DNA of 64,000 nucleotides from Candidatus Poribacteria bacterium (GTDB taxonomy: Bacteria > Poribacteria > WGA-4E > WGA-3G). Within the stretch, counting starts at the first letter, position 1. Each line of letters opens with the position of its first letter. Positions 848-45,841 of this stretch are shown here, in pieces. Position numbers and translations under genes: made by a program. The stretch covers positions 4,512,001 through 4,576,000 of the forward strand of contig OZ244048.1 in assembly GCA_965215265.1 (NCBI GenBank). The letters run 5' to 3'. The notes below the pieces were generated by a model. That model did not search any database. It saw only the letters and a list, made by a program, of their open reading frames with translations, and was not told where the DNA came from.

Positions 848-1267
848 CTTTTTGTATATCTTGGTACCATCACCGCTTATGTATTGTTTAATCGTGTGTA
901 AATCTCGTCGGAGGTTAACTAGGTAATGTCTTTAAAATCTAATTTTTGTATATCTCCGTACCATCAAAGGTTATGATTTTACGCTCTTGTGTTGGCAGGT
1001 TCGGTTTTCCTAGTGGGTGGCAGGGTAAAAGGTAGTGATAGCGTGTCCTTCAGGACACGCTATCACTACCTATCCTGCCACTTTATCTCTCCTTTAGGAA
1101 AGATAAGAATACCTTATCCTGCCAATCTATAGATAAATCTCGTCGGAGATTCCTTAGGCATAGCATAAAGCGGCTCTGGCGAGATTTGTAAAGTTATTAA
1201 CATAGCAGCAGCCTTTATTGGGCTCCTGTAGACAAAAGATCTTTATCGTGCTAAAATATACTAAAAA
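848..1267. repeat. Composite intergenic element: family 1 arms with two nested family 2 hairpins (993-1134, containing 1010-1081)
   Basis: tttgtata...aaatctcg arms, cgagattt...tatactaaaa end, tggcagg...cctgcca hairpin, and a perfect 18-bp stem at 1031-1070. Confidence 0.85.
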
Positions 1268-1281
1268 TTGAGGACACCCGT

Positions 1282-1917
1282 TTGAACGAGCTGACCTATT
1301 ATCTTGGATGCCACGTTGAGCACTATGCACAAGTGGCATCCACCAATGATATCGCACTTGAGCGCGGAAAAGCAGGGGCGGAAGAAGGCACCCTCATCGT
1401 TGCTGAACACCAAACCGCTGGCAGAGGCAGATACGGTAGGAAATGGGAGACACCCCCCGGCAAATGCCTGCTTGTCTCTGTTATTCTCAGGCATCGACTT
1501 AGGCATGACGAGGTTCCACTCCCTAACCTCATCGGTGCTATCGGCATTGCGAAGGCAATTCATACCACTACCGGACTGGAGGCCCGGATAAAAGCCCCTA
1601 ATGATGTGAAAATTAAAAGAAAAAAGGTAGCGGGTGTTTTAACCGAACTCGCATACGACCGGCGGAACCAGCCGTTTTTCGTACTAGGTTTTGGTGTCAA
1701 TGTGAATAACTTTTTAGAGGATTTTCCACCGGAACTACAGAGTACGGCTACCTCTCTGCGCATAGCACTAAATACTAACGTCGACATCTGCAGAAACAGA
1801 CTATTAAAAGTGATACTCCATCAAATTGAGAATACCTATCGGCATCTTAAGACAGGCAAGCCGAATTTAATCATGGCACAGTTTAACGAATTTTCGTCTA
1901 CAGGAGCACAACAATGA
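1282..1917 (+). CDS. birA: Biotin--[acetyl-CoA carboxylase] ligase, no N-terminal HTH
   Basis: STND, QTAGRGRYGRKW, K(A)PND, KVAGVL and GFGVNVN motifs. Confidence 0.93.
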   Translation: MNELTYYLGCHVEHYAQVASTNDIALERGKAGAEEGTLIVAEHQTAGRGRYGRKWETPPGKCLLVSVILRHRLRHDEVPLPNLIGAIGIAKAIHTTTGLEARIKAPNDVKIKRKKVAGVLTELAYDRRNQPFFVLGFGVNVNNFLEDFPPELQSTATSLRIALNTNVDICRNRLLKVILHQIENTYRHLKTGKPNLIMAQFNEFSSTGAQQ

Positions 1918-2100
1918 TTTTTTGTATATCTCCGTTTTTTGTATATCTCCGTGCCATCAAAGGTTATGATTTTGCGCTCCTGTGTAAATCTCGTCGGAGG
2001 TTAACTAGGTATAGTCTTTAAAATGATAACATCAAACGGCAGCCTTGTTACGGGCTCCTGTAGACAAAAGACCTTTATAGGGCTGAAATATACGAAAAAA
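1918..2100. repeat. Family 1 element between birA and the DUF523 gene
   Basis: tttgtatatctccg...aaatctcgtcggag...gctgaaatatacgaaaaa. Confidence 0.85.
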
Positions 2101-2543: not shown

Positions 2544-2760
2544 CACAAATTTTTGTATATTTCAGCCCCATCAAGGGTTATGTATTGTTAAATCCGATGT
2601 ACATCTCGTCGGAGACTCCTTAGGTTTTGACTTTAAAGACGATACCTAGAGCGGCTCTGGCGAGATTTGTAAGGGTTTTTACATTGCAGCAGCCTTTATG
2701 GGGCTGCAGTAGACGAAAAAGCAGCAGCCTTGTATCGGGCACCTGTATACGAAAAAATCT
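2527..2760. repeat. Family 1 element between the convergent DUF523 and trpC genes
   Basis: Arm-core-inverted arm organisation. It overlaps the DUF523 stop codon. Confidence 0.85.
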
Positions 2761-3539: not shown

Positions 3540-3810
3540 CCTCTATTTTAGCCCAATACCAATCGATGTTTTTAGCAACCTTGCATAAAGTGATTGAAGA
3601 ATCATAACCTAGAATGGCTCCCAGTGGGTGGCAGGTAAAAGGTATTCTTTTTCTATCCATGAGAAAAGATTACCTATCCTGCCACTGGCGAGATTTACAT
3701 ACGAGTATTTATTACATAGACGTTGATGGTACGGAGATATACGAAAAAAACGAGATTTACATCGGAATTGTAGTACATCACTTTTGATGGTACTACAGTA
3801 TACGAAAAGA
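3540..3810. repeat. Family 1 element with a family 2 insert (3621-3685)
   Basis: The canonical ggctc|tggcgagattt is split by ccagtgggtggcagg...cctgccac. Confidence 0.85.
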
Positions 3811-4833: not shown

Positions 4834-5200
4834 ATTTTTGTATGGTGCAGCCCCTCAACGGCTGATGTTGTGTCAATGACTGTGTTGGCAGGATAGGTAG
4901 TCTATCCGTGTCCTTCAGGTGGGGAAGTTCTCCCCGCAAGCGGGGATGAATCCCCAACGCTAGTGCTACCTTTTACCTGCCAATCTATAGATAAATCTCG
5001 TCGCCCGCCCACCCAAATCCTTTGATGTTTAGATTCATTACATCGAACGGCTCAGACGAGATTTGTAAAGGTTTTATTTAGCATAGCAGCCGCCTTTATT
5101 GGGCTCTTGTATACAGAAGAACGAGATTTGTGCAAGGTTGCTAAAAACATCGATTGGTATTGGGCTGAAATATACAAGAAAACGGAGATATACAAAAAAT
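4834..5200. repeat. Triple-nested element: family 1 > family 2 (4886-4992) > family 3 (4920-4956)
   Basis: Compared with the uninterrupted reverse-complement copy at 30261-30332. Confidence 0.85.
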
Positions 5201-5204: not shown

Positions 5205-5633
5205 TTACATTTTCAGGGTCATCTGTTGTTCGATAAAGTGCCGTTCTGATTTCTTTGTCGGCTGAATTCTCCACTCAGTCGGCAAGCGGACGAGAGTGTT
5301 GATACTATCCGGGTTCTCAAAATACGCATCGTCTATCTGCCAGAATTGGAGACGTGCGTAACTTTGCCGGTTATGCTCAAAACGTCCCATCGTTTCCGCT
5401 TGCTGTCGCATACCCGCACTAACAGGCTCAACGGTAATAAAGATGCCGATCTCTGCACCGTTTTCGGACATGACTTGGCAGAAGGCACGCACCTGCGTCA
5501 TCGAAGGCCTGCCAGTCTTAACTTCGGCGAGAATACGTGCATTCGTTTCTTTCATGAGCTGTGGATTCCATAAAGTTGCATGTCCGACACCGTCATACCC
5601 ACCATCGCCCTTTCGTCTACTGCAGCACGTCAC
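5205..5633 (-). CDS. Detached C-terminal Mrr-like restriction endonuclease domain of the methyltransferase
   Basis: GDGGYDG...EVKTG (D...ExK) motif and GIFIT. Same frame as 5685-7013, separated by one stop codon inside an inserted repeat. Confidence 0.65.
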   Translation of the reverse strand: MTCCSRRKGDGGYDGVGHATLWNPQLMKETNARILAEVKTGRPSMTQVRAFCQVMSENGAEIGIFITVEPVSAGMRQQAETMGRFEHNRQSYARLQFWQIDDAYFENPDSINTLVRLPTEWRIQPTKKSERHFIEQQMTLKM

Positions 5634-5698
5634 AAGTTGCTGTTTTGCTAAAACATTTACAAAACTCGTCTGAGGTTCCCTATGTTATGATTCAAAAC
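5611..5698. repeat. Family 1 fragment inserted in the methyltransferase-nuclease gene
   Basis: tttcgtctactgcagcac...aaaactcgtctgag...tgttatgattcaaaac. Confidence 0.85.
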
Positions 5699-7118: not shown

Positions 7119-8130
7119 TTAAACTCCAGATTGGTTTGCATACCACTTAATATTACCCGTACTGAGCCCACTCGCCACAATATCGGGCCGCCCATCTGCA
7201 TTCATGTCTACTATCTGCATCTGCCCAACCCCCAAGCCGCCATCGTCAATTTTTCGTATATCTCCGTACCATCAACGCTTAGGTAATAATAACTCGTGTG
7301 TAAATCTCGTCGGAGATGACTTAGGTTTAGTCTTTAAAAATCTAACGTCTCTTTACCCCACCGGTTCTGCGCCAGATTCTCTGGACGGTAGAGATGCAAG
7401 CTGGTGCCTTCCCCATTATAGCCACAGATGACCTCTAACACACCGTCCGCATCAACGTCAACTGCCGCAATAGAATGTCCACGGTTGAGTGTATCATCAA
7501 TAGGGTAGCGCGTCCAAGCGGATGAACGCAAATCGCCAGTGACTTTATACCAGACGAGGTTGTTCCCGTGCCATGGCTCAATTGCCAGAATTTCGTTGAC
7601 ACCGTCGCCATCAATATCCGCAGCGTAGGTATCGCTACACGCCTTATCGCTAATCACCCACTTGCGCCAGGGTTGTGTCATCGGTTCGGTAGGGGCTCAT
7701 ACCAGACAAGCCCTTCGGTGCAGCTAATTAGGACATCGTCCCGCCCATCCATATCCACATCGTTGATGCTCAGTCCGTGGTTGATATGCAGTCTATCGTC
7801 AAGCAGATGGGCGTGCCATGTTCCGTCTCGCGGTTCATCCGGAAGTTAGTAACACCAAAGGGAACCGGGACTGTGCCATTCACCCGGTTTTCCATCTTCC
7901 CCACGGATCGATGCGACGATGAGGCCTGGTTTGTGCGACGCGTCTTTGGTGAAATTACCGAGCGCAATACGGTGAATGAACGGCACATGAGCGATGTGAT
8001 GGCTAGTCCAATTCTCACCTGATTGAGCCGGTGCTTCCAGCCAATGTAGGTAACCCCCTGCAGCGTTAACACCGCGGTTGAAACCGCTCCCGACGATGAG
8101 CTCGGGTATCCCATTATCGGTGAGGTCGCC
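7119..8130 (-). pseudogene. FG-GAP/VCBS-repeat protein pseudogene
   Basis: Repeats GDLTDNGIPEL, DVDMDGRDD, DIDGDGVNE and DMNADGRPD. In-frame TAA near 7848, frameshift near 7690, repeat insertion at 7250-7343, 5' end replaced by repeats. Confidence 0.8.
7250..7343. repeat. Family 1 half element inside the FG-GAP pseudogene
   Basis: Near-identical to 36894-36989. Confidence 0.85.
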
Positions 8131-8467
8131 CGCCCACCCAAATCCTTTTTCTGTATATAGGAGTCCAATGCTAGTTGCTGCTATTTACAACCCTGTACAA
8201 ATCTCGTTTTTTTTGTATACAGGAGCCCAATAAAGGTCTTTCGTCTACAAGAGCACAACACAACAGATGTAATGAACACCTTAGCACAAATCTCGTTCTT
8301 TCGTCTACAGGAGCACAACACAATAGATGTAATGAACACCTTAGCACAAATCTCGTCTGTGCCGTTTGATGTTTTGATTTTAAAGACTATACCTAGTTAA
8401 CCTCTGGCGAGATTTAGACACGAACCATCAATACCTAAGCGTTGATGGTACGGAGATATATAAGAAA
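8125..8467. repeat. Family 1 cluster with a tandem 60-nt arm duplication (8239-8357)
   Basis: ctttcgtctacaRgagcacaacacaaYagatgtaatgaacaccttagcacaaatctcgt occurs twice. Confidence 0.85.
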
Positions 8468-10270: not shown

Positions 10271-10812
10271 TTTTCGTATACTGCAGCACGTCAAACATTG
10301 CTGCTATGCGCGCCCTAGCACAAATCTCGTCTTTTCGTATATCTCCGTTAAGAATTGTCCCCGCACGCGGGGTGAATTCTTAACCATCAACGCTTATGCT
10401 TTGATGACTTGTTTGTAAATCTCGTCGGAGCCTCCTGATGTTTAGATTCATAACATCTTTTCGTATCTTTCAGCCCCATCAAGGGCTATGTTTTTGATAA
10501 TCCTTTTTTCGTATATAGGAGCCCTACAACGCATCAAGCGTTGTCAACCACTGGGCACATCTCGTCGGAGGTTTTTTCTGTATACAGGAGCCCGTTAAAG
10601 GCTGTCTATAGATTGGCAAGATAAGGTTGAGAGATAGGTAGTTCACGAGAAGGGATTCCTCCGCGCAAGCGGGGATGAATTCCCATCCTTCCCTTCTCTT
10701 CAAGGTTTCGTAAACTTACCTTTTACTCTCAACTTCGTAATCCGCCTGGGCGGTGATGGAAGAAAGAAACCCCTTGAAAAGGGCGTTCTTGTCGCGAGAA
10801 TACGAAATCTCG
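10271..10812. repeat. Large family 1 cluster with family 3 hairpins at 10349-10382 and 10652-10684
   Basis: Multiple ttcgtata arms. The canonical atctccgt|accatcaa is split by a 34-nt hairpin. Confidence 0.8.
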
Positions 10813-12611: not shown

Positions 12612-12812
12612 TTTAGTATATTTCAGCACAACCCAGACGGATGTTATATACACACTAGCACAAACCTCGCCACTTCTCTCTCCTGAAAGGAGAGAGAAAG
12701 AATACCTATCCTGCCACTCGAGGACAGACAAAGAAAACCGAACCCCGCCACGAGATTTACACAGTCATTAACAAAACATAAAGCGTGATGGTACGGAGAT
12801 ATACCAAAAAAA
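12612..12812. repeat. Family 1 element with family 2 remnants inside the ilvB leader
   Basis: tttagtatatttcagcac...cgagattt...ggagatataccaaaa. Confidence 0.75.
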
Positions 12813-21379: not shown

Positions 21380-21450
21380 TCTCGCGAAAATAGGTTAACC
21401 TGAGTACTTACAAGATAAAAAAAATAATCGGAAGGCACGTAAAACGCAGC

Positions 21451-26917: not shown

Positions 26918-26920
26918 TAG

Positions 26921-31204: not shown

Positions 31205-31660
31205 ATGGACGAGCTCCTCAAACTTGTTGTACAACTCGCGAACATTGCTGAAGAAAAAGAACTCACGGAAGTTCGCATCCGAGATGGAGAAATCGAAGTA
31301 CAAGTATCCAGGCAGAAATCGCAAGGTCCCGGAACCGGCACTGGGCATTTCCTGCCAGCGTCTCCCACAGAAGTGACACCAACTCCTATGGACTCCAGCG
31401 ATGCGAATCAATTTCCTGACTCTGAATTGATTAACGCGCCTATGCCGTCACGATTCTATCGCTCCCCAGCACCTGAAGAACCAGCGTTTGTTCAAGTAGG
31501 CGATACGGTAAATGCCGGAGATACTATAGCAATCCTCGAAGTCATGAAAACTTACAACCCGGTTGAAACGTCTTTCAACTGTGAGATACTCGACATACTT
31601 GCTGAGGATGGTGACGCTGTTGAATACGGGCAACCGTTGTTCCGCGTCCGTAGATGCTAG
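31205..31660 (+). CDS. accB: Biotin carboxyl carrier protein
   Basis: EVMK biotinylation motif; VEYGQPLF. Confidence 0.93.
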   Translation: MDELLKLVVQLANIAEEKELTEVRIRDGEIEVQVSRQKSQGPGTGTGHFLPASPTEVTPTPMDSSDANQFPDSELINAPMPSRFYRSPAPEEPAFVQVGDTVNAGDTIAILEVMKTYNPVETSFNCEILDILAEDGDAVEYGQPLFRVRRC

Positions 31661-31681: not shown

Positions 31682-33049
31682 ATGTTCCAAAAAATACTCA
31701 TAGCCAATAGAGGCGAAATAGCTGTCCGCATTATCCGTGCATGTAAGGACATGGGAATTAAAACGGTAGCAATCTTTTCTACTGCTGATGCAGATGCACT
31801 GCACGTTGAGAATGCTGACGAAGCCTACTGTATCGGACCGCCGCCGTCAACAGAGAGCTATCTTAAATATGCCAATATTATTGCTGTGGCAGATTTCGCG
31901 AATGTGGATGCCATCCATCCGGGGGCAGGATTCCTCTCCGAGGACGCGCAATTCGCCGAAATTTGTGAAGCACATGAGATCCGGTTTATCGGTCCCTCTG
32001 TTACTGACCTCGCAACAATGGGAGACAAAGTCCATGCCCGTGAAAAAGTCGCCAAAGCAGGACTGAAATTGGTCGCGGGCAGCCGGGACAACAAACGGAG
32101 AAACGCAAATAAATCAAACGCGACTCTTACCGTCGAAAAGGCAATTCAGCTTGCTGAGAAAATAGGTTACCCAGTCGGTATCAAAGCGACTGCCGGCGGT
32201 GGCGGGCGCGGCATCCGTATTGCACACAATCGTCCGAGCCTTTACAATCTATTTCACACCGCAAAGTCAGAAGCTGACGCAGCCTTTGGTAATGCCGAAG
32301 TTTACCTTGAAAAATGGATCGAAGAGGCACGCCACATTGAAGTACAAATCCTCGCCGATACCCATGGAAACGCAGTTCATTTCGGTGAACGTGAATGCTC
32401 TATCCAACGGAAGCAGCAAAAACTCCTCGAAGAAGCCCCTGCTGCATCTATTTCCCCAAAACTTCGCGCCGAAATTTGCAAAGCCGCCGTAAAAGCCGTC
32501 AAATCAATCGGATATACGAACGCCGGAACCATCGAATTTGTTGTGGATACCAACGATAATTTCTATTTCTTAGAAATGAATACGCGCATCCAGGTAGAGC
32601 ACACCGTAACGGAAAATACCACTAACACCGATCTGATTAAAGAGCAAATTCGGCTCGCAAGCGGCGAAGAGCTCGGATATAGCCAATCTGATATTCAACT
32701 GCAAGGGCATGCAATTGAATGCCGAATTAATGCCGAAGATCCGGACAATGAGTTCATGCCCTCACCAGGGCTGATTAAAAACTACCATCCGCCCGGCGGG
32801 ATTGGCATTCGCGTTGACAGTTATCTCTATACCGGCTACACTGTTCCACCGCACTATGACTCGCTCATTGCTAAACTCATTGCTACCGGACGGGATCGGA
32901 ACGAAGCAATCGCACGACTCAAGCGGGCACTCTCTGAATTTAGAATTGACGGTATCAAAACCACAATCCCGTTGCATCAAAAAATACTGAACGACGAACG
33001 TTTTCTCAACCGAAACATCTTCACAAATTTTTTAGACAAAGGTTTTTAG
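31682..33049 (+). CDS. accC: Biotin carboxylase
   Basis: ANRGEIA, GGGGRG, ECSIQR, EMNTRIQVEH and YDSLIAK motifs. Confidence 0.97.
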   Translation: MFQKILIANRGEIAVRIIRACKDMGIKTVAIFSTADADALHVENADEAYCIGPPPSTESYLKYANIIAVADFANVDAIHPGAGFLSEDAQFAEICEAHEIRFIGPSVTDLATMGDKVHAREKVAKAGLKLVAGSRDNKRRNANKSNATLTVEKAIQLAEKIGYPVGIKATAGGGGRGIRIAHNRPSLYNLFHTAKSEADAAFGNAEVYLEKWIEEARHIEVQILADTHGNAVHFGERECSIQRKQQKLLEEAPAASISPKLRAEICKAAVKAVKSIGYTNAGTIEFVVDTNDNFYFLEMNTRIQVEHTVTENTTNTDLIKEQIRLASGEELGYSQSDIQLQGHAIECRINAEDPDNEFMPSPGLIKNYHPPGGIGIRVDSYLYTGYTVPPHYDSLIAKLIATGRDRNEAIARLKRALSEFRIDGIKTTIPLHQKILNDERFLNRNIFTNFLDKGF

Positions 33050-33286
33050 TATACGGTAGCACAATAAAGGTTTTTAGTATATTTTAGCCCCATCAACGCT
33101 TAGGTATTGACAGCCCGTGTGTAAATCTCGTCGGAGCCATTTTATGCTATGCCTAAACAGAGAGAGTCTCCGGCGAGGTTTACACAGGCATTGACACAAC
33201 ATCAGCCGTTGACGTGCTGAAATATACGAAAACATACATCGGATTGATAAAAATAGGAACATTGACGGTGCGGAGATATACAAAAA
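33043..33286. repeat. Family 1 element from the accC stop codon to the CRTAC1 start codon
   Basis: ttttagtata...cggagatatacaaaaaATG. Confidence 0.85.
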
Positions 33287-35014
33287 ATGAAGGTAAAGAA
33301 CATCCACGTAACTGTCGGACTCATAGTTACACTAATTTCAATCAAGGCAGTGGCGGTTGCGTCCACTTTTGTTGATGTAACGCGCGAAGCTGGCATCGAT
33401 TTTCATCATAGCGGTGGTTCTCCTCGCTCCAGCCTACTTCCAGAGGATATGGGGTCCGGCGCAGCCTTCGTCGATATTGATAACGACACGCATATTGATC
33501 TTTACATCGTTAACAGCCCTGGCCCTTTCAGGGAGCACGGACAGCAAACTCAGGCTAACGTCCTCTACCGAAACAATGGCGACGGCACGTTTACAGATAT
33601 AACAACCAGTGCCTTCCAAAATAGTAACGATGCACTTAATAAGCCTGCACCATACGGCATGGGATGTGTCTACGCAGATTATGATGGCGACGGAGATGTT
33701 GATCTCTACCTTACCAATTACGGGAACAACACCCTCTATCGAAATAATGGAAATAGAACGTTTACAAATGTAACAGACACCGCCGGAGTTGGCGGAGAAT
33801 CGTGGAGTACAGGTGCTGCCTTTGCTGATACCGATGCCGACGGCGACTTAGATCTTTACGTTTGCAACTACGTTACTTATGATTTAGAAAAATTACAGGA
33901 CATGCAGGCAGAATCCCTTCAATCTGGGAAACCTGTACCCAGTGCCTTGAATCCACACGTCTTTGAACCACAAGATAACGTCTTCTATCGCAACAATGGC
34001 GACGGCACCTTCACTGATGTAACGACCGAGGTTGGAGTTGCCGCATCAGGGGGCAGAAGCATGCAGGCAATCTTTAGCGACTTTGATCTGGATAACGATA
34101 TGGACCTGTACGTTGCAAACGATACTACTGTCAACCACACTTATCGCAACAATGGCGACGGCACCTTCACTGATGTCAGCGATGATTCCTGGGCAGCAGA
34201 TTTCCGCGGCTCCATGGGACTCGCTACCGGAGACTACGACAACGACGGCGACATAGACCTCTTTATGAGCCATTGGGTTGATGAAGAAAATGTCCTCTAT
34301 AGAAACCTCCTCATCGAAACGTCAACACCTAACGCAAAAAAAATTCGGTTTGCCGATGAATCATATTCCTCAATGTTAGCAGAAGTCAGTATCAAAGAGA
34401 TTGGATGGGGAACCTCACTCTTTGACTACGACAATGATGGCGACCTGGATATCTTTGTCACAAATGGAAGCACCTTCCAAGAACTGGACCGCCCGGAAAA
34501 CCTGATTCCGCAAAAAGACGCGTTGTTTCGCAACAATGGCGAATCGACGTTTACCGATGTCAGCGAGCTCGTAGGCATCACAACACTGCCGGCGCGAGTA
34601 GGGCGAGGCGCAACCTTTGGCGATTACGACAACGACGGAGACATCGACATCTTTATCGTGAACAACCATGCACAGCCCACGCTGCTGCGCAATGATACAA
34701 TCCGTGTAAGGACAGCTAGCACTAACAACTGGCTACACGTCAACTTGCATGGAACTGATGCAAACCGAAATGCTATCGGCGCGAAAATTCAGATTAAAAC
34801 AGAAAATGGCAGTCAAATCCGAGAAATTTACGCCGGAGAAAGCTACATGTCTTGTAATAGTTATACTGCCGAATTTGGCGTAGGCACAGCAACAGCCGTC
34901 GAATCCCTGCAGGTTACGTGGCCCAATGGAATAACACAAACACTCCATGACGTTCCGGTGAATCAACGGATAGATATTTCCTATATCTCCGTACCATCAA
35001 CGCCTATGCCTTGA
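33287..35014 (+). CDS. CRTAC1-family FG-GAP + ASPIC/UnbV secreted protein
   Basis: Repeated DYDNDGDxD and YRNNGDGTFTDV; AIGAK...WPNG ASPIC domain. Confidence 0.92.
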   Translation: MKVKNIHVTVGLIVTLISIKAVAVASTFVDVTREAGIDFHHSGGSPRSSLLPEDMGSGAAFVDIDNDTHIDLYIVNSPGPFREHGQQTQANVLYRNNGDGTFTDITTSAFQNSNDALNKPAPYGMGCVYADYDGDGDVDLYLTNYGNNTLYRNNGNRTFTNVTDTAGVGGESWSTGAAFADTDADGDLDLYVCNYVTYDLEKLQDMQAESLQSGKPVPSALNPHVFEPQDNVFYRNNGDGTFTDVTTEVGVAASGGRSMQAIFSDFDLDNDMDLYVANDTTVNHTYRNNGDGTFTDVSDDSWAADFRGSMGLATGDYDNDGDIDLFMSHWVDEENVLYRNLLIETSTPNAKKIRFADESYSSMLAEVSIKEIGWGTSLFDYDNDGDLDIFVTNGSTFQELDRPENLIPQKDALFRNNGESTFTDVSELVGITTLPARVGRGATFGDYDNDGDIDIFIVNNHAQPTLLRNDTIRVRTASTNNWLHVNLHGTDANRNAIGAKIQIKTENGSQIREIYAGESYMSCNSYTAEFGVGTATAVESLQVTWPNGITQTLHDVPVNQRIDISYISVPSTPMP

Positions 35015-35488
35015 TAGCTCATGTGTAAATCTCGTTTTTTTGTATATTTCAGCCCCATCAAGGGTTATGTATTGTTAAATCCGATGTAAATCTCGGCGGA
35101 GGTTAACTAGGTATAGTCTTTAAAATCTAAACATAAACGGCCCAGGCGAGATTTGTAAAGTTATTAACACAGCAGCAGCCTTGTATCGGGCTCCTGTAGA
35201 CGAAAGAACGAGATTTGACAAGGGGTTATCAAAACACAGATTAGTATTGTGCCCAATGGGTGGCAGGTGGTAGGGTTCGGTTGAGCCATCTATAGATAAA
35301 AGGTTATCTTTTCACTTCTAGAAGGAGTGAAAAAGAATACCTATCCTGCCACTGAAATATAGGAAAAAAAATAAATCTCATCGGAGCCCTTTTATGTTTT
35401 GTTTGAATCATAACCTCGAAAACCTCAAACGAGATTTGTGCGAGGTTGTATATTACATCATCGGTGCCGTGTTGCAGTATACAAAAGT
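34977..35488. repeat. Large family 1 / family 2 cluster
   Basis: Several arms and cores plus cccaatgggtggcagg...cctgccac. Confidence 0.8.
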
Positions 35489-36848
35489 GCATATTATTAC
35501 TTTACTCATCCTCTTTCATACAATCGGATGTGGAGAAGATCCTGCGATTAAGCGCGGTAAACAACTCGCCGTCAGTGGTGATACTGCAGCAGCAATACAT
35601 GAATTTGAGGAAGCCCTTAAACGAGATCCGGCTAATGCAGAAACCTATTATCAACTTGGCGTAGTTCATGAACAGACCGCGCAGGCGGGACAAGCTGTGA
35701 TAGCGTTTCAGAAAGCACTACGGCTCGCACCGAAAAGAGACGACATACGCTTTGCCCTCGGACGCGTCTATTGGTTTGGAGACAAGCCAGATTTGGCACT
35801 TGAACAATTCCAAAAGCTCCTGATTACGAAGCACGATATCCTTCTAAAGATAGCAGGACTCACCGGGGATGCTTACCACGTCAAACGACTCCGAACTGAA
35901 GGGAGTAACGACTACGAGCAAACCTTTACAGAGAAGGGAAATATCATGACATTTACTGCAAAGTATGCAGATGATTATAGTCCCGCTATCTCACCTGACG
36001 GAAAATGGATAACCTTCACGTCCTACCGATTGCAAAACGGTGAGATTTACCTGATGAACATCTCGGTACCGGATGGAGAACCCCGGCAACTCACGCATAC
36101 GGATGAGCTTGACGAATATATGCCGACCTTCTCGGCTGATGGAAAGACACTCGCCTTCGTTACGGAACGCACAAAGGGCATGATGATGCTCCCGCCGATT
36201 CAGGCAAGCGGTTCTGTCCCGAGCACTGCAAAAATCTATCTGATGGACATTGACGGTCGAAATCAACGGCCCTTAGCGGAGATGCCAGGCATGCAAAGCG
36301 CACCAGCATTCTCACCTAATGGACAGAAAATCGCCTTTGAATCAAATTTTTCCGAGACTCCTGAAACGGACAATGACATGGAAATTTTTGTCATCAATAT
36401 AGATGGCACCGGCCAAATACAGCTAACCGACAATGATGTGGACGATGGAAACCCTACTTGGACACCGGATGGAAAACAGATAGCTTTCGTATCAAATATC
36501 AGAGAAACCTACCAGATCTGTGTCATGAATGCAAAAGGCGGAGACATCAAACAGCGGACAGCATCTACTGACAGTCACTACCAACCGCTCTTTACACCAG
36601 ATGGAAAACGAATTATTTACGTTTCAGACGCTCATAATCACTACACCCTCTGGATGATGAACGCAGACGGTACAAACAAAAACCAACTCACGAATCACAT
36701 CGGGGCCCATTTTGAACCCAGTTTGTCCCACGATGGGAAAAAACTCGTTTTCAGCGCAGATCGTTCCGATCATATGCGAATTTACCTTCTCGATTTCACA
36801 CAACCTATCAAAAAAGAGGAACTGCAAGCACGTTTTCGTCTACAGTAG
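35469..36848 (+). CDS. TPR + TolB/PD40 beta-propeller lipoprotein
   Basis: Lipobox TIGC, TPRs, repeated P.FSPDGK.I. Likely GTG start lies in the repeat end. Confidence 0.85.
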   Translation: MLQYTKVHIITLLILFHTIGCGEDPAIKRGKQLAVSGDTAAAIHEFEEALKRDPANAETYYQLGVVHEQTAQAGQAVIAFQKALRLAPKRDDIRFALGRVYWFGDKPDLALEQFQKLLITKHDILLKIAGLTGDAYHVKRLRTEGSNDYEQTFTEKGNIMTFTAKYADDYSPAISPDGKWITFTSYRLQNGEIYLMNISVPDGEPRQLTHTDELDEYMPTFSADGKTLAFVTERTKGMMMLPPIQASGSVPSTAKIYLMDIDGRNQRPLAEMPGMQSAPAFSPNGQKIAFESNFSETPETDNDMEIFVINIDGTGQIQLTDNDVDDGNPTWTPDGKQIAFVSNIRETYQICVMNAKGGDIKQRTASTDSHYQPLFTPDGKRIIYVSDAHNHYTLWMMNADGTNKNQLTNHIGAHFEPSLSHDGKKLVFSADRSDHMRIYLLDFTQPIKKEELQARFRLQ

Positions 36849-37442
36849 CACGTCAAAGATGTCTGTAATATGCACCTTAGCACAAATCTCGCCTTTTCGT
36901 ATATCTCCGTACCGTCAACGCTTATGTAATAATAACTCGTGTGTAAATCTCGTCGGAGATGACTTAGGTTATGTCTTTAAAAATCTAAACATCAGAACCC
37001 TCCCAGTGGGTGGCAGGTAAAAGGTAATCTTCTCTCATGGACAGACAAAGAATACCTATCCTGCCACTGGCGAGATTTGTAAAGGATTTAACATAGCAGC
37101 AGCCTTTATTGGGCTCCTGTATACAAAAAAACGAGATTTGTAAAGGATTTAGTAAGACAGCAACTTGTGCCGTGCTGCAGTATACAAAAGCCTAAAAGAT
37201 ACATACGAAAAATCTAAACAGAGAAAACTTCAGACGAGATTTGTCAAGGGTATCCATTCCATCAGGTGTTGATGTGCTAAAAGATACGAAAAATCTAAAC
37301 AGAGAGAGGCTCCGACGATCTATAGATGACGAGAAAAAGGTAATCTTTTCTGTCCTCGAGGAGAGAAAAAGAATACCTATCTCGTCAGATTTGTGCGAGA
37401 TTGTATATTATATCATAGGTGCCGTGCTAAAATATACGAAAA
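36833..37442. repeat. Large family 1 / family 2 cluster (inserts at 37003-37067 and about 37318-37387)
   Basis: Canonical junctions split by double hairpins. Confidence 0.85.
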
Positions 37443-39757
37443 CCTGCTTCCTCGTTCTTCTAATGGTTATCGGTTGCCAAACTGATACTCCTAAACAAGA
37501 ACCTCCTTCTCAATTCTCCATTCAGTACAAACGCGGTATAGAGGCGTTAGACATGGACAAGTTGACAGAAGCAGAAAAGGCGTTTCAGACGTGTTTACAA
37601 ATCAATGCCAACGCGCTCAATGCTCGCATGCAGTTAGCACGCATCTATATTAGACAGCAAAAATTTAACCGTGCAGAAGCGACATTAGGGGCATTAGAAA
37701 CACTACACGGAGAACACCAAAATCTCCAAGAATTGGCACAAGCCTACCTCATGCTCTCACAAATTTTTAGTTACCAGCAGCGATTTGCGGATGCCACTGC
37801 CGCGTTGACAACCGCGTTGGAATTCAATCCAATGGATACAAGCGCTCGCATGAGATTGGGATATTTCTTAGGTGCACCCCAGCAGATGCTCGTCCCTGAT
37901 CTGGCGGCATCAAAACGGCAGTTTGAAAAAGTCTTGGAACTTGAACCGAATCATCCAGAAGCGATGCTCCAACTCGGATTGGCGGAATTCAGATTAGGAG
38001 AACCGGATAAAGCCGCGAAACGTTTTACGCATCTGATCGAAAACTACGGCCGGCACGCGGGAGCTTACTACTACTTAGGTGTCTATCATCTGCGGCACGG
38101 TAACCTTGAAGCAGCCATAGATAACTTCAAAGAATCCCTCCATCTCAGACCTCGGGACCCTGAAACCCTCTGGAATCTTTGGACAGCTGCTTCCAAATTC
38201 GGCGGTTATCCAGACAACTTACCAGAGGCATTTAAAATTCGACCAAAATCAGCCGAACCGCGAATCGGTAGCACAAATCTTGATACACTGTCCCTCCCTA
38301 AATTTACCAACCTCGCTTCCGCTTTAGGCATGGACAAAGTTGATGGAGGTCGAGGTAGCGCCTGGGGTGACTACGATAAAGACGGCGATTTGGACATCGT
38401 CGCGGTCGGCACCTATCAGCCTCATGCACTTTATAGGAATAACGGTGACGGAACATTTACCGACGTTGCGGAAGACGCAGGCATAGCGGATCCGCGCGGC
38501 GGCTGGGGCTCCCTATTTGCTGATTACAATAACGACGGATACATAGATCTCTATATCACACGCGGCGGCTGGTCGGGTGCAGCGGAGAATACCCTCTACC
38601 ACAACAACGGTGACGGGACATTCACAGATGTCACCGAAATCGCAGGTGTCGCAGATCCGCAGAGCAGCTTCTGTGCCGCATGGGCAGATTACAATAATGA
38701 CGGACATATAGATCTCTATATTGCAGACGGAGTCATCGGCGACGGGGCCCCCAACGTCCTCTACCACAATAACGGCGACGGCACTTTTATAAACACCGCA
38801 GAGGCAGCCGGGGTAGCGAACCGAGGAAACTCCCTCGGCACCGCATGGGGCGATTACAATAAAGACGGACACATCGATCTGCATGTTGTCAACTTTGGAC
38901 AACAGAATGTTCTCTATCGTAATAACGGCGACGGCACCTTCACCGACGTAACACCTACCACAGGCATGGAGTTATCTATCACCGACCCTTTCGTCACCTT
39001 TTTTTTAGATGTGGATAATGATGCAGATTTGGATATTTTCATTTCAAACTCAGGTTCTTTTCAAGCATTTATCGCATGTCAACTCACAGGCACGGCTACA
39101 CACGATAGCGACCGGCAAGTGCTTTACCGCAACAACGGAGACGGCACTTTTACTGACGTAACGCGCGAATCGGGACTCTATAAAGCTTTTGGGGCAATGG
39201 GTGCCAACTTCGAAGATATTAATGGTGATGGCTATCTCGATATCTACCTCGCCACCGGCGCGCCACAAATGGGACGTTTGGAGAGAGACGCGCTCTTCCT
39301 AAACAACGGTGACGGCACCTTTACCGATGAGACCATCACTTCAGGCTTAGGCAATATCGGAAAGGGGCACGGGGTTACCTTTGGCGATGCAGATGCGGAT
39401 GGAGACGTGGATATTTACGTTTCTGTTGGCGGTGCCTTTATTGGAGATCAGTGGCACAATCTTTTTTACCATAACCCGGGTACACAAAACAATTGGATCA
39501 CGCTCAAAACAGTTGGAGTCAAAAGCAACCGGGATGGCATCGGGGCAAAAGTGACACTCACCCTTGGGAATACCAAAATTTATAGAGAAGTCAGTGGCGG
39601 GTGTGGATTTGGCTCAACCAACAGCATTCCACTTGAAATCGGGTTAGGAAAAGCGAAACAGGTAGACAGACTTGAAATCGTTTGGCCCTCCGGGCAGATC
39701 GATATATACACCCATCTCGCTCCCAATCAGCCCTACGTCCTCACTGAAGGTTTTTAG
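37424..39757 (+). CDS. TPR + FG-GAP + ASPIC/UnbV lipoprotein
   Basis: Lipobox VIGC, TPRs, DYNNDG repeats, GIGAKV...WPSG. Likely GTG start lies in the repeat end. Confidence 0.88.
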   Translation: MLKYTKTCFLVLLMVIGCQTDTPKQEPPSQFSIQYKRGIEALDMDKLTEAEKAFQTCLQINANALNARMQLARIYIRQQKFNRAEATLGALETLHGEHQNLQELAQAYLMLSQIFSYQQRFADATAALTTALEFNPMDTSARMRLGYFLGAPQQMLVPDLAASKRQFEKVLELEPNHPEAMLQLGLAEFRLGEPDKAAKRFTHLIENYGRHAGAYYYLGVYHLRHGNLEAAIDNFKESLHLRPRDPETLWNLWTAASKFGGYPDNLPEAFKIRPKSAEPRIGSTNLDTLSLPKFTNLASALGMDKVDGGRGSAWGDYDKDGDLDIVAVGTYQPHALYRNNGDGTFTDVAEDAGIADPRGGWGSLFADYNNDGYIDLYITRGGWSGAAENTLYHNNGDGTFTDVTEIAGVADPQSSFCAAWADYNNDGHIDLYIADGVIGDGAPNVLYHNNGDGTFINTAEAAGVANRGNSLGTAWGDYNKDGHIDLHVVNFGQQNVLYRNNGDGTFTDVTPTTGMELSITDPFVTFFLDVDNDADLDIFISNSGSFQAFIACQLTGTATHDSDRQVLYRNNGDGTFTDVTRESGLYKAFGAMGANFEDINGDGYLDIYLATGAPQMGRLERDALFLNNGDGTFTDETITSGLGNIGKGHGVTFGDADADGDVDIYVSVGGAFIGDQWHNLFYHNPGTQNNWITLKTVGVKSNRDGIGAKVTLTLGNTKIYREVSGGCGFGSTNSIPLEIGLGKAKQVDRLEIVWPSGQIDIYTHLAPNQPYVLTEGF

Positions 39758-40122
39758 TATACTGCAGCACAACACAAGCAGTTGTAATGTTTAATCCTTT
39801 ACAAATCTCGTTTTTTCGTCTACAGGAGCCCATTAAAGGCTGCTGCTATATTAAAACCTTTGCAAATCTCGTCGGAGTCTTTCGATGTTATGAATCTAAA
39901 CAGAAAGAGGCTCCGACGAGATTTATGCGAGGATATTCATTCTATCAGGTGTTGATGTGCTAAAAGATACGAAAAATCTAAACAGAGAGAGGCTCCGACG
40001 ATCTATAGATGACGAGAAAAAGGTAATCTTTTCTCATGGACAGAAAAAGAATACCTATCTCGTCAGATTTGTGCGAGGTTGTATACTACATCCATCAGTG
40101 ACGTGCTAAAAGATACGAAAAA
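39751..40122. repeat. Family 1 / family 2 cluster; 39944-40122 is a direct near-copy of 37261-37442
   Basis: About 90 nt identical, followed by a similar arm. Confidence 0.85.
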
Positions 40123-42752: not shown

Positions 42753-45599
42753 ATGGAACGGTTTTGCATCATGCTGTTGCTGCTCATACTTGGTACAGGG
42801 CCTGCTTTCGGCGAAAATGAAGCACAACAGCGAGTAAAAATTACCGGCGTGGTTATAGATAGCAACACCGAGGTACCCCTATCTAATGCCACTATCCGGG
42901 TAGTGGACACGTCTTCGCGTGATAGACAATCCCAAGTCAGTAGTGATGACACAGGGAATTTTTCTCTGGAACTACCGAGCGGTACCTATACAATCCAAGT
43001 CACTGCTTCGTTTTACAATGCCTATGTCATTTCAGATTTTCAGGTTGATGTAGAGAAAGCGGTTGAACCCATTCGTGTCTTGATGACTGCTCAGGTTGTA
43101 AAACTCGACGCGATTAAACTCCCAGTGCGGTTGAGCCAATCCAGCGAACGTGGGCTCCTTGAAAAACGGATGCGCAGCTCCCGAATTGAAGATAGCATCA
43201 GCACCGAAGAGATTAGCCGCCTCCCAGCCTCTTCTGCAGGGGATGCTATTAAGAGGGTGACAGGCGTTAGCATCGTTGGCGGACGGTACGTGTTTGTCCG
43301 AGGGCTCGGTGAACGTTACAGTAATACTCTCCTCAATAATGTTGAGATTCCGAGTCCGGAGCCCAATCGACGGGTTGTCCCGATGGATATATTTCCGGCG
43401 AGTCTCCTGGCGAGTTTGCAAACAGTCAAAACGTTTTCACCGGATCAACCGGGGGGGTTCGCTGGCGGCTCTGTACAGGTGTTTACGAAAGACTTTCCTG
43501 AAGAATTAACAATGTCACTTTCCATATCGAGCGGTTTCAACACACAGACAACCGGTGAAGAAGGGCTCACCTATGAAGGCGGTACGCTGGATTTCTTAGG
43601 TTTTGATGATACATCGCGTGAACTTCCAACGATTGTGAGAGAACAGGCGGCGGAACTGCCTATCCGCGAACGGGGACGTTTTACACCGGCCGGTTTCACA
43701 CCGGAAGAGATCCAAAAATTCGGGCAAGCTTTCTCCAACGTCTGGTCACCAAGACGGCAGGAGATTCCTATCAATCAAAGCTATAAATTCAACCTCGGCA
43801 ACAGTCACCCACTTTTCGGAAAAGACTTCGGCTACCTTGCCGTGCTCTCTTATGGCAACAGCCATAGTTCCAGTACCCAAGTGCGCAATGCCTTCCGCAT
43901 CGGATTAAACGAAATCCTTTCGCCGGTAACCTCCTACGACGTTGAACGCAACGCAAATGAAGTAGACTGGGGGAGTGTTCTAAACGCAAGCCTCCGGTTC
44001 TCACCACAGCATCAACTGAGTCTACGTTCTCTCTTCACGCATACGGCTGAAGATGAGACCCGGATATGGGAAGGCTTTAATGCCGATAGAAACACAGATA
44101 TGCGGAGCTCTCGACTCCGATATGTTGAACGCCAGCTCTTCTCTGGACAATTAGCCGGCATGCACGACTTTAATTTCGGTGCCCCAGAACTGGAACGTTC
44201 CAGCGCGGATAGTGGGACAGAAGCGATAACAACCCAGCCCGAGCTCGCAATGGAATGGCGACTCACTTATTCACGTGCATCACGGGACGAACCAGATACA
44301 CGCGAGACTATCTATGAAGATAGGGCTGGCACTTTCACTTTTCGAGATGTTACACACAGTGGCAGCCGCTTCTTTTTTGACCTGGAAGATAATGAGTATA
44401 ACGTGCGCGTGGATTGGAGGATTCCGGTTCGCAAGGCCGGATTCTTCAAATTCGGCGGACTCTTGCGAGATCGAGCGCGCACCTTTGATGCCCGCAGATT
44501 TAGATTTTTGCCTGCAGACAAAGTGGATGCCACCGTTAATTTATCAGACCCGCCCGAAACACTTTTCAAACAGGAACATATTGCACCACGCGTATTTGAA
44601 CTACGCGAATCCACTCGGGCAACCGATAACTACCTAGCAGACCACAATATCTACTCCGGCTACCTTATGCTGGATATCCCTGTCACGCAAAAATGGCAAT
44701 TCATGTCGGGGGTCCGGCTTGAATCTTCAACGCAAAAGGTAACTACCTATGATCCGTTTTCAGCATCCGTGCGGCCAATTGTGGCAGATTTAGAAACCGT
44801 AGATTTGCTGCCCGGTGCTAACTTGACGTACCGGCTAGCGGAACGGATGAACCTACGAGTCGCTGCATCACGAACGATTACACGCCCAGATTTTAGAGAA
44901 CTTGCTCCATTTGAGTTCACAGATTTCGTTGGCGGACGAACCATCCTTGGAAACCCGGAACTTGAGCGGACACAGATTGACAATTATGACTTCCGCTGGG
45001 AAGTGTTTCCACAAATTGGTGGGGTCGTCGCCGCCAGTCTCTTTTATAAACGATTTCAGAAACCGATTGAGCAAATCGTTCAGCCGCAAGCAGAAGTCCG
45101 CATTACCTATGAAAACGCCGACGCTGCGAATAACTACGGCCTTGAACTAGAAGCACGCCAGAACCTCGGAATACTCACAGATAAACTCAACGAATTCTCG
45201 ATTAACACCAATGTGGCGCTAATCTCTTCGCGGGTGGTACTACCTGATGTTGGGATCCAGACATCGTCTGAACGGCCCCTACAAGGGCAGTGCCCGTATA
45301 TAGTCAATCTCTCTATCGGTTACGAAAACCCCAACTGGGGCATCTCGAGCGCAGTCGCTTATAACATTTTTGGCAAAAGGCTCTCTGAAGTTGGAAACCA
45401 TGGTGTACCTGATGTTTATGAACAGCCCCGCGGCCAGTTGGATGCCAATTTTAGCCGCACCGTTGCAAATTACTTCCGAATCAATTTTTCGGCGAAAAAT
45501 TTACTCGACCCTTATGTGCATTTCAAACAAGGCGAAGAGGTATACGTTCAGTACAAACTCGGACGTGCCTTTTCATGCGGACTCAGCTATAACCTCTAA
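42753..45599 (+). CDS. TonB-dependent receptor
   Basis: Carboxypeptidase-reg N-domain, plug VRGLGERY...VPMDIFP, RPDFRE, GNPEL, terminal SYNL. Confidence 0.93.
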   Translation: MERFCIMLLLLILGTGPAFGENEAQQRVKITGVVIDSNTEVPLSNATIRVVDTSSRDRQSQVSSDDTGNFSLELPSGTYTIQVTASFYNAYVISDFQVDVEKAVEPIRVLMTAQVVKLDAIKLPVRLSQSSERGLLEKRMRSSRIEDSISTEEISRLPASSAGDAIKRVTGVSIVGGRYVFVRGLGERYSNTLLNNVEIPSPEPNRRVVPMDIFPASLLASLQTVKTFSPDQPGGFAGGSVQVFTKDFPEELTMSLSISSGFNTQTTGEEGLTYEGGTLDFLGFDDTSRELPTIVREQAAELPIRERGRFTPAGFTPEEIQKFGQAFSNVWSPRRQEIPINQSYKFNLGNSHPLFGKDFGYLAVLSYGNSHSSSTQVRNAFRIGLNEILSPVTSYDVERNANEVDWGSVLNASLRFSPQHQLSLRSLFTHTAEDETRIWEGFNADRNTDMRSSRLRYVERQLFSGQLAGMHDFNFGAPELERSSADSGTEAITTQPELAMEWRLTYSRASRDEPDTRETIYEDRAGTFTFRDVTHSGSRFFFDLEDNEYNVRVDWRIPVRKAGFFKFGGLLRDRARTFDARRFRFLPADKVDATVNLSDPPETLFKQEHIAPRVFELRESTRATDNYLADHNIYSGYLMLDIPVTQKWQFMSGVRLESSTQKVTTYDPFSASVRPIVADLETVDLLPGANLTYRLAERMNLRVAASRTITRPDFRELAPFEFTDFVGGRTILGNPELERTQIDNYDFRWEVFPQIGGVVAASLFYKRFQKPIEQIVQPQAEVRITYENADAANNYGLELEARQNLGILTDKLNEFSINTNVALISSRVVLPDVGIQTSSERPLQGQCPYIVNLSIGYENPNWGISSAVAYNIFGKRLSEVGNHGVPDVYEQPRGQLDANFSRTVANYFRINFSAKNLLDPYVHFKQGEEVYVQYKLGRAFSCGLSYNL

Positions 45600-45677
45600 A
45601 TGAGAGGCATCAGCATCGCGGAACGTCAAAAAGAATTAATAGTATTGCAACTATTCTGTAACAATTTAAGGCTATCA

Positions 45678-45841
45678 TTTTTCGTATATTTCAGCCCCAT
45701 CAAGGGTTATGTATTGTTAAATCCGATGTACATCTCGTCAGAGCCTTTCGATGTTATGAATCTAAACATAAACGGCTCTAGTGAGATTTGTGCTAAGGTG
45801 TTCATTATATCAATCATTGTTGTGCTCTTGTAGACAAAAAA
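45678..45841. repeat. Complete isolated family 1 element
   Basis: Left arm is near-identical to 2550-2615 and 35038-35098. Confidence 0.85.

Follow-up and report, generated by a model that had tools for sequence, protein, structure and literature searches.

Three families of small nested repeats at the gene junctions of a sponge-symbiont Poribacteria genome

We analyzed a 64,000-nt stretch of DNA (the window; positions 4,512,001-4,576,000 of a one-contig genome of 4.83 Mb and 48% GC) from a sponge-symbiont member of the Poribacteria and found that its housekeeping genes, which encode a lipoate/biotin ligase, RNase PH, RdgB/Ham1, EF-P, AccB, AccC and FG-GAP/ASPIC proteins, are interleaved with three families of short repeats. 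The explanation that we favor, at a probability of about 0.65, is that one Poribacteria species had its gene junctions colonised by three families of small repeats, non-coding and non-autonomous, that were moved in trans. Family 1 is built of 57-nt arms set in arrays, and families 2 and 3 are hairpins that occur both within these arrays and elsewhere. In the window, a repeat finder listed 43 families of direct repeats; of the 20 displayed, most were views of one system. The genome holding the window is referred to as G000, a genome of the same genus as G001, and a Poribacteria genome of another genus as G004.

The family 1 arm

The copied block of family 1 is a non-palindromic arm of 57 nt with a 61-nt period, in which the head TTTTYGTMTAY and the 8-nt tail AAATCTCG are both conserved; the tail is usually followed by TCGGAG. 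The tail 14-mer AAATCTCGTCGGAG occurs 110 + 99 times in the genome, compared with 0.04 expected occurrences. A seed set of arms anchored on both conserved ends, from which one pattern match within an open reading frame (ORF; 32470-32520) was excluded, and three nhmmer iterations (E <= 0.01) gave a profile with 856 genome copies, 689 of them full length, and 0 copies in the reversed genome used as the control. In the window, the profile found 59 arms, which form 22 arrays between 849 and 45841; this number bears out a first-pass annotation of the window, which had placed family 1 at about 22 junctions and had proposed the profile. Anchoring on both ends gave 38 full arms in the window, 37 of which measured 56-58 nt, the exception being 61 nt long.

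Arm columns G7, T8, T10, G17, C20 and T38 and the tail were conserved at 95-99%, and the mean pairwise identity of the arms was 63%. The 689 full-length arms comprised 655 distinct sequences, and 194 of these 655 had a nearest neighbor that was at least 98% identical. The low mean identity and the many close neighbors together indicate that family 1 is diverse yet recently copied, with a few positions fixed. At column 9 of the head, 28% of the arms have C and thus read CGTCTAC, or GTAGACG as the reverse complement, whereas GTATA is found in the other 72%.

Single arms folded as DNA (n = 4) gave z-scores of +0.07, +0.71, -0.52 and -1.62 and thus have no fold of their own, and no helix common to the family was detected across the 655 distinct arms. 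One column pair (27-47) covaried, with 87% Watson-Crick or wobble pairs; no helix extended from it, and it was treated as subfamily linkage. A CRISPR-like reading of the 61-nt period was also rejected, as the arrays are two to five units long and the putative spacers sort into subfamilies.

Array architecture and the copied unit

The arrays follow a strict layout. Neighboring units at most 300 nt apart were arranged as +- in 191 cases, ++ in 121, -- in 129 and -+ in 19, and the pattern (+)n(-)m was obeyed by 395 of the 409 arrays genome-wide, or by 220 of 234 when only multi-unit arrays were considered. The heads, with their T-run, point to the genes, and the tails point to a small palindromic core, which results in imperfect foldbacks of approximately 170 bp or more. 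The cores consist of two half-modules and have discrete sizes; among 147 measured cores, 12 were 37 nt, 26 were 45 nt, 36 were 52 nt, 16 were 53 nt and 7 were 57 nt long. The closed element at 2546-2722 folds as DNA into one long imperfect hairpin (-29.9 kcal/mol, z -5.3, with 0 of 200 shuffles as good).

The two arms of an arm-core-arm element usually belong to different subfamilies, and the numbers of arms on the two sides are often unequal (++-, +--, +++--). The two arms of one element were only 57.2% identical, compared with 62.4% for shuffled partners (200 of 200 shuffles were higher), which we read as the loss of perfect palindromes or as a left/right polarity. Tandem neighbors, in contrast, were 73% identical, compared with approximately 62% for random pairs. 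The high-scoring segment pairs (HSPs) of at least 92% identity among array regions peaked at 50-69 nt and ended at the T-run and at CTCG(T) or TCGGAG, and approximately 50 HSPs covered whole elements (150-190 nt). Given these lengths and ends, together with the tandem duplicates, the palindromic element of 160-175 bp that the first-pass annotation had taken as family 1 proved to be a mosaic, in which the arm is the unit of similarity. The stacking was augmented by local duplication and probably by recombination at the shared ends.

When nearest-neighbor identity was compared between inner and outer units, the inner unit scored higher 64 times and the outer unit 35 times, and 15 comparisons were tied (Wilcoxon p 0.0009); this result fits growth from the center. 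Local amplification of a whole element was observed at G000:C1:2975964-2976580, where five closed elements lie in tandem with a 154-nt period (+-+-+-+-+--).

Comparison with related genomes

G001 is syntenic with the window over 26000-45700, with a gene nucleotide identity of 73-83%. Both sides could be delimited for nine junctions, of which the eight arm-bearing ones were 64-1927 nt longer in G000 than in G001; the ninth, which is arm-free, was shorter in G000 (26 nt versus 100 nt). The syntenic 19 kb of G001 contained 0 arm matches, compared with 32 in window 26000-45900. In particular, accC and the next gene overlap in G001 (TAAATG), whereas 273 nt of repeats separate them in G000. The accC loci of 80 other Poribacteria (80 named Candidatus Poribacteria records, AccC identity 71-84%; 345,787 nt) likewise contained 0 arm matches, compared with 10 in the equivalent G000 stretch. 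An arm sequence model (R1) found at least 173 copies in G000, 1 in G004 and 0 in 29 other relatives. Because the same junctions are empty in G001 and in 80 other Poribacteria, the elements were inserted rather than inherited, and the empty orthologous sites that the first-pass annotation had anticipated do exist.

The tail 14-mer has a wider distribution, with 209 occurrences in G000, 61 in G004 and 5 in G001. Among the 176 genomes searched in the phylum, 13 further genomes contained one or two copies, about double the approximately seven chance matches expected by our own estimate; a reversed-pattern control gave one match in each of four genomes. The repeats that the 14-mer closes in G004 and G001 are different and longer ones, which start with the same TTTTCGTC head, and, as the head and the 14-mer are shared in this way, the head/tail logic is older than the 57-nt arm. 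At G001:C1:1445476-1445800 (L003), an 87-nt tandem repeat starts with TTTTCGTCG and ends with GAAAATCTCGTCGGAG; it is a cousin of the G000 arm, although G001 is otherwise free of the family. At G004:C1:4963748-4964178, the tail 14-mer forms a six-copy array with an 86-nt period.

Viral carriage was considered and rejected. At least 120 viral contigs had one 14-mer match each, and these matches were attributed to chance because 80 viral loci (712,413 nt) contained 0 arm matches. A search of a 177-nt element against plasmids and phages gave no match, and Rfam 15 at gathering scores gave no family match to the repeats in the window, its sole match being a T-box. Literature searches returned no description of these repeats in Poribacteria, although supplementary tables might list related families. 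The elements thus remain non-autonomous, lineage-restricted and unnamed, as the first-pass annotation had them.

Families 2 and 3 and the direction of nesting

Family 2 (approximately 65-72 nt) has the form CCCAGTGGGTGGCAGGTAAAAGGTA-variable hairpin-AAAGAATACCTATCCTGCCAC. Its foot gave 123 genome matches, compared with 5 in the control; 45 of them are within or close to arrays (arrays make up 3.1% of the genome), and 78 lie away from arrays. Family 2 copies fold strongly (z -4.0 to -13.3) and nest mutually as onions, with left halves stacked on the left and right halves on the right. A second form, with ATCTATAGAT on one side, was found at 66 sites, 49 of which are in or near arrays. For this form, 53 sites could be oriented, and 35 of these fall at one of two hot spots that border the 8-nt tail, 13 of them at CGAGATTT^ or a close variant of it and 22 at the CTCCG(ACG)^ junction.

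Family 3 (approximately 34-40 nt) consists of an outer stem, CCCCGC-N2-4-GCGGGG and an outer stem, and two copies gave z-scores of -4.6 and -5.7. It was found at 27 genome sites, compared with 1 in the control. In a strict placement test, 6 of these 27 sites were inside family 2, 2 were in or at arms, and 19 were elsewhere; in three arms, family 3 occupies the identical CCGT^ACC position.

All insertion coordinates given in the first-pass annotation, for family 2 in families 1 and 2 and for family 3 in families 1 and 2, were read and are as described (Table 1), and 30261-30332 is indeed a family 2 version that lacks family 3. An uninterrupted arm (29339-29395) is 94% identical to the interrupted arm 30333-30384. 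At nested sites with comparable filled and empty versions, no target duplication was visible. The reported direction of nesting (1 > 2 > 3) also held, with family 3 inside the two other families as above and an arm in 0 of 92 family 2 spans, that is, without reverse nesting.

In contrast, the successive waves that had been deduced from this order were not supported. The core hairpin of family 3 is the most widespread of the three repeats (27 sites in G000, 406 in G004, 30 in G015, 23 in G026 and 14 in G006), whereas the family 2 foot and the 57-nt arm are essentially confined to G000; in the comparison among genomes, the foot had 78 copies in G000 and 0 in 30 relatives. Because the widest spread in the phylum belongs to the innermost family, the order of nesting is not an order of age; what the hierarchy reflects is size and target preference rather than a series of lineage-specific waves. 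With most family 2 feet off the arrays and most family 3 sites in neither arm nor family 2, a tie of these families to earlier elements did not hold either: families 2 and 3 are independent of family 1, though they also occur at fixed positions there, mostly beside the 8-nt tail.

Relation to genes and expression

Gene calls were crude (longest ORFs of at least 90 aa, greedy choice). By these calls, 654 of the 856 arms are intergenic, and divergent junctions are underrepresented among closed arrays (12 of 162, compared with 509 of 3805 for all junctions). The reverse complement of the arm lies on the sense (mRNA) strand in 106 of 131 single units and in 325 of 545 array units, and these ratios are equal in both GC-skew halves. 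With respect to replication, the units split 445 to 411, which is no effect; the cumulative GC skew was not a clean two-arm curve.

An open start was present at most 30 nt downstream of 161 outer heads, and in 36 of these the start lies exactly after the A-run, 5 nt from column 6. GGAG-bearing heads accounted for 63 of the 161 start-adjacent heads, compared with 248 of 826 overall. At the other end of genes, of 125 ORF ends adjacent to heads, 40 fall within the unit; for example, the accC stop TAG (33047-33049) is supplied by a unit head, and at the far side of the same junction an arm reaches the ATG of the FG-GAP gene at 33287. The A-variant head (TTTTTAG) was rejected as a dedicated stop-codon donor, as only 3 of 27 end a long ORF. 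The fold of closed elements is weaker on the sense strand (more stable on sense in 32 cases and on antisense in 59; p 0.002). Promoter-like sites numbered 34 versus 26.2 (sd 4.0) and terminator-like sites 25 versus 20.6 (sd 5.0), with few inside arrays and no clear enrichment. We read these relations to genes as a filter, in which only those copies survive that are compatible with expression, and some are co-opted as leaders.

Search for a mobilising enzyme

The G000 genome was scanned with eight transposase-related Pfam families plus DUF559, together with 20 ORFs from 17 of 117 repeated regions. As the first-pass annotation had stated, the window contains no transposase, and the Pfam scans revealed almost none in the genome. 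No matches in G000 were obtained for PF01797 (Y1/RAYT, the transposase type associated with repetitive extragenic palindromic elements, REPs), for which the control was positive in 6 of 14 genomes, nor for PF00665 (rve), PF07282 (TnpB) or PF01548 (IS110). The 0 matches to PF04986 are uninformative because the control genomes were silent too. PF01609 had three matches just above the cut-off. The single match to PF00589 (tyrosine recombinase; G000:C1:4117565-4118038) contains an internal TGA, and no intact XerC/D-type match was reported. A search with PF00078 revealed one group-II-like reverse transcriptase, below the NCBIfam cut-off, which was rejected as the mover, as there was no sign of a link to the repeats; a DUF559 nuclease was rejected as well, its one weak match lying inside a 1571-aa ORF.

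The proposed search for a transposase or RAYT gene with the same termini as the repeats was thus negative for PF01797 in G000. Y1 genes were present in 24 of 30 relatives, and the 34 matches in G001 belong to a 1.95-kb IS605-like element whose ends are unrelated to the arms. G000 and G001 have an opposite mobile-DNA make-up, the former with arms and without Y1, the latter with 34 Y1 matches and without arms.

G000 also contains 117 regions of at least 500 nt at a depth of at least 3, and many blocks of 2-8 kb are repeated at 92-99.9% identity (for example, C1:63377-71720, 1456025-1462313 and 142304-147706). These blocks carry genes for DNA methylases, Type ISP/Eco57I enzymes, FGE-sulfatase, LRR and MgtE_N/FliG_M-like proteins and PF04754. 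The 20 scanned ORFs encode methylases, sulfatase-modifying enzymes, LRR, MgtE_N-like and PF04754 proteins, and no parent insertion sequence (IS) with matching ends was found among them.

The sole expanded transposase-like family is PF04754 (Transposase_31, Rpn/YhgA-like PD-(D/E)XK), with 24 copies in G000, 8 in G004 and 0 in G001, a rank order that matches that of the tail 14-mer (209, 61 and 5). However, PF04754 genes were not associated with arms, the median distance being 7.2 kb versus 9.3 kb for all genes, and only 2 of the 24 lie within 1.5 kb of an arm, compared with 18% of all genes; G006 (10 copies) and G003 (7 copies) carry PF04754 without the tail 14-mer. For these two reasons, we treat the family as a lead only. 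It is the leading suspect in a proposal to which we give little credence, namely that all three families are moved by an unrecognised structure-specific nuclease or recombinase that cuts and joins at extruded hairpins and leaves no target duplication; the heads-out onions would then arise as insertion recurs at the tips of palindromes already in place. No known transposase family accounts for these elements.

Origin of the elements and alternative explanations

Under the explanation favored at the outset, a mover acting in trans would read the conserved head, the tail and the hairpin geometry. Insertion would take place without target duplication and preferably at or near the center of existing palindromes, giving onions whose inner layers are younger, and further stacking and mosaicism would come from local duplication in tandem and from recombination at the head and tail motifs that the arms share. 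Perfect palindromes would be lost, so that surviving elements pair unlike arms. Selection on expression would keep only compatible copies, either those with the arm reverse complement on the mRNA strand, which ends in an A-rich stretch before the start codon and in one subfamily includes GGAG, or those whose head provides a stop codon.

Several points weigh against this explanation. No enzyme, donor or excision product was seen, and mobility was deduced solely from the comparison between species, in which G000 and G001 have diverged too far between their genes for family 1 insertion points to be placed or for short target duplications to be excluded. Logan contigs from four runs in four studies that cover 26000-45900 break at the arrays, and no empty allele was seen; the apparent joints in these contigs are repeat-induced, and empty alleles could not be excluded from such contigs, while two of the four runs bridge the array 28177-28345 unchanged. 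Simple center insertion of whole palindromes is a poor fit to the unequal arrays (++- 23, +-- 23) and to the 175 single-unit arrays, and center insertion alone does not predict that most tandem arms abut directly without half-core remnants. The age signal between inner and outer units could be explained by subfamily size alone, and the orientation and abutment counts inherit the error of the crude gene calls.

In an alternative explanation, only whole composites transposed, in the past, with the unit-sized blocks and stacks arising from local duplication, recombination or gene conversion at the head and tail. The greater identity of adjacent tandem arms (73% versus approximately 62%), the near-identical tandem arms at 8238-8359, the five core copies with a 154-nt period at genome positions 2975964-2976580 and the approximately 50 HSPs of 150-190 nt all point in this direction, as do HSP borders placed exactly at the conserved motifs, where recombination would resolve. 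We nevertheless consider this explanation rather unlikely, since most high-identity blocks are single arms common to distant loci, 175 arrays consist of a single arm, many neighboring arms come from different subfamilies, and more than 400 loci still require a transposition step. It is less probable still that the main role of the arms is that of functional RNA or translation modules (intercistronic leaders, or elements for processing or stabilisation), spread and retained by selection because they set downstream-gene expression. Such a role would agree with the strong orientation of single units (106 of 131, in both GC-skew halves), with the 36 of 161 start codons placed exactly after the A-run, with the share of GGAG heads next to starts (63 of 161 versus 248 of 826) and with the arms that run directly up to the start codons of efp (ATG at 30447) and the FG-GAP gene (ATG at 33287). 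However, the same housekeeping operon works without the elements in G001 and in 80 other Poribacteria, the arms have no conserved fold, promoter- and terminator-like sites show little excess and are few within arrays, the closed-element fold is weaker on the sense strand (32 versus 59 antisense), and 220 of the 545 array units have the opposite orientation.

The families could also be relics of single-strand transposition (HUH/Y1, RAYT or IS200/IS605-type) whose transposase has since been lost from G000. In keeping with this, families 2 and 3 insert site-specifically without visible target duplication, the hairpins fold as single strands, and many members of the phylum have Y1 transposases (24 of 30 relatives; 34 matches in G001); additionally, approximately 28% of the heads read CGTCTAC/GTAGACG and so carry the CGTC and GTAG tags reported for REP superfamilies in PMC3733652. 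Against it stand the 0 PF01797 matches in the one-contig G000, the unrelated ends of the G001 IS605-like element, the lack in the arms of the subterminal hairpins that these enzymes use, and the lack of arms in the Y1-rich G001. Moreover, the 194 of 655 arms with a near-identical partner argue for recent copying, and we regard the relic hypothesis as quite improbable.

Relation to known repeat systems

To our knowledge, small intergenic repeats are common, and the mode of movement of most of them is unknown outside the cases of REPs with RAYT and of IS with their MITEs (miniature transposable elements with inverted repeats). The unit of REPs and of REPINs is a short palindrome (20-40 nt) with its own fold and a conserved, unpaired GTAG or CGTC tag at one end, and the RAYT gene is flanked by the repeats. 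As in the REPs, REPINs and bacterial interspersed mosaic elements (BIMEs) of Proteobacteria, the Poribacteria repeats comprise hundreds of non-coding copies, mostly at co-directional and convergent gene junctions, and units of opposite orientation are combined in mosaic clusters, which fold into larger hairpins. They also contain other repeats, much as REPs are nested in longer palindromes according to Di Nocera 2013 (PMC3733652), and they share the lack of a dedicated transposase with the CGTC-type REPs of that paper, which describes mosaic clusters in Neisseria as well. In contrast, the Poribacteria unit is 57 nt long and not itself a palindrome (z about 0), its arms stack in direct rather than alternating orientation, no RAYT is present, and a GTAG/CGTC-like head is limited to approximately 28% of units. 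Lacking both a palindromic unit and a RAYT, the repeats do not belong to the REP-RAYT system.

Foldback-type elements have long inverted ends built of tandem subrepeats, and the Poribacteria arrays are similar in having arms made of a variable number of direct subunits. BIMEs, neisserial intergenic mosaic elements (NIMEs) and MITEs sitting in operons are covered in Delihas 2011 (PMC3184786), where Nezha and Chunjie appear too. MITEs such as Correia/NEMIS of Neisseria, Nezha and Chunjie resemble the Poribacteria elements in their inverted arms, short center, absence of coding capacity and empty sites in relatives, and also in lying within unbroken operons, where they are able to supply expression signals. 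Terminal inverted repeats are present in that the inverted 57-nt arms of closed elements fold end to end, with arms of unlike subfamilies. Unlike MITEs, however, the Poribacteria elements have no visible target-site duplication at the nested sites with comparable filled and empty versions, and no parent IS with matching ends was found, for which reasons we do not class them as IS-derived MITEs; furthermore, the similarity between the arms of one element is lower than that of random pairs, and the copied block is a single arm.

The pneumococcal BOX element has the composition boxA-boxB(n)-boxC. NIMEs, which are mentioned in PMC3184786 and PMC3733652, are neisserial repeat units bounded by dRS3. 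The Poribacteria arrays are similar to both as intergenic mosaics of variable segments that are joined via short conserved motifs and vary in module number. They differ in that the sequences are unrelated, that they follow a strict heads-out rule around a core, and that no integrase or phage link was found, the lone PF00589 match in G000 being interrupted by a stop codon. Heterocystous cyanobacteria carry tiny nested hairpin repeats (small dispersed repeats) without a transposase at structure-defined positions in other repeats. They belong to another lineage and have other sequences, and the Poribacteria repeats differ from them in having three size tiers and a non-palindromic outer arm. IS200/IS605-derived miniature elements, which have subterminal hairpins at both ends and depend on TnpA, were rejected, as the arms lack subterminal hairpins, G000 has no TnpA and the ends of the G001 element are unrelated. 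An integron attC/cassette array, which is marked by an IntI integrase and by cassettes that vary among relatives, was rejected as well, given the interrupted PF00589 match, the gene order conserved in the repeat-free G001, and the housekeeping nature of the genes (rph, rdgB, efp, accB and accC). The system behaves like REP/BIME, NIME, BOX and MITE-type repeats, and the sequences themselves are previously undescribed.

The single-contig genome provides a clean case, with more than 850 recently copied arms, two nested hairpin families and operon junctions rebuilt so that the repeat provides stop codons and leader sequence. Its main value is that no recognisable mover is present in G000 and that the contrast with the same-genus G001 is clean, which makes the search for the enzyme tractable. 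Additionally, the case illustrates how extensively the spacing within a conserved housekeeping operon can be altered by selfish repeats while the operon itself stays intact. The arrays break short-read assemblies of Poribacteria and could serve as strain markers.

Repeat features of the window and neighboring observations

The repeat features of the window are collected in Table 1.

Table 1. Family 1 arrays and family 2 and 3 copies in the window (^, insertion point).
Position	Strand	Feature	Remarks
849..1238	.	Array ++-	Second arm 943-992 split at TGTGT^AAATCTCG by family 2 block 993-1134
1010-1081		Nested family 2 hairpin within block 993-1134	Fold -31.4 kcal/mol, z -13.3
1935..2098	.	Array +-	Right arm partial
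2550..2756	.	Array +--	Fills convergent-gene gap; holds closed element 2546-2722
3551..3808	.	Degenerate left arm + core, then family 2, then two right arms	Right arms 3685-3808
3621-3685		Family 2 insert	CTC^TGGCGAG, flanked GGCTC / TGGCGAG; z -5.7
4835..5177	.	Array +--	Left arm split at TGTGT^AAATCTCG by family 2 4886-4992
4920-4956		Family 3 hairpin	In loop of family 2 copy 4886-4992
5611..5674	+	Single arm + half core	
7250..7345	+	Single arm + core half	Shares 96% identity with 36894-36988 over 95 nt
8148..8463	.	Array +++-	Arms 8238-8296 and 8298-8359 near-identical tandem duplicates
9588		Family 3 hairpin	Outside family 1 arrays
9640-9702, 21770-21836, 61530-61602		Other family 2 copies	Outside family 1 arrays
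10271..10570	+	Array ++++	Second arm split by family 3
10349-10382		Family 3 hairpin in arm	CCGT^ACC (CCGT / ACCATC flanks); z -5.7
12612..12809	.	Array +-	Chained family 2 right halves between arms, 12669-12750
21450..21515	+	Stand-alone family 2 hairpin	Outside family 1 arrays
24550..24775	.	Array +-	Family 2 at CTCG^TCGGAG, 24608-24672
26942..26994	-	Single arm	Directly before start region
28177..28345	.	Closed element +-	Upstream of rph; bridged unchanged by contigs of two other public runs
29112..29443	.	Array +++--	Fills rph-rdgB junction; 368 nt vs 57 nt in G001
30080..30445	.	Array ++--	Fills rdgB-efp junction; rightmost arm ends GGAGATATACAAAAAA just before efp ATG 30447
30261-30332		Family 2 without family 3	Same TGTGT/AAATCTCG site filled, other strand
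31091..31205	.	Array +-- of truncated arms	efp-accB junction
33044..33287	.	Array	Separates accC from FG-GAP gene; junction 273 nt vs 26 nt in G001
34977..35486	.	Array ++-, then family 2, core, further arm	Family 2 ~35260-35352; further arm 35424-35486
36833..37440	.	Array ++---	Family 2 at 37003-37067, CTC^TGGCGAG (CCCTC / TGGCGAG flanks)
37318-37383		Second family 2 copy in array 36833..37440	CGACG^AGATTT (CTCCGACG / AGATTT flanks); splits further arm
39751..40122	.	Array ++--	Unit head supplies stop TAG 39755-39757
40001-40066		Family 2 in array 39751..40122	CGACG^AGATTT (CTCCGACG / AGATTT flanks)
45678..45841	.	Closed element +-	

Two further features lie beside these arrays. The T-box leader (RF00230, 97.3 bits; window 12847-13112, minus strand) adjoins the array 12612-12809. 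A 406-aa ORF (window 40128-41348, minus strand) belongs to no clear Pfam family; the ORF and the surrounding approximately 1.9 kb are missing from the syntenic G001 junction, which is 54 nt long, and within the ORF three 150-nt tandem copies are found at 40270-40719, which are 99% and 89% identical to the reference copy.

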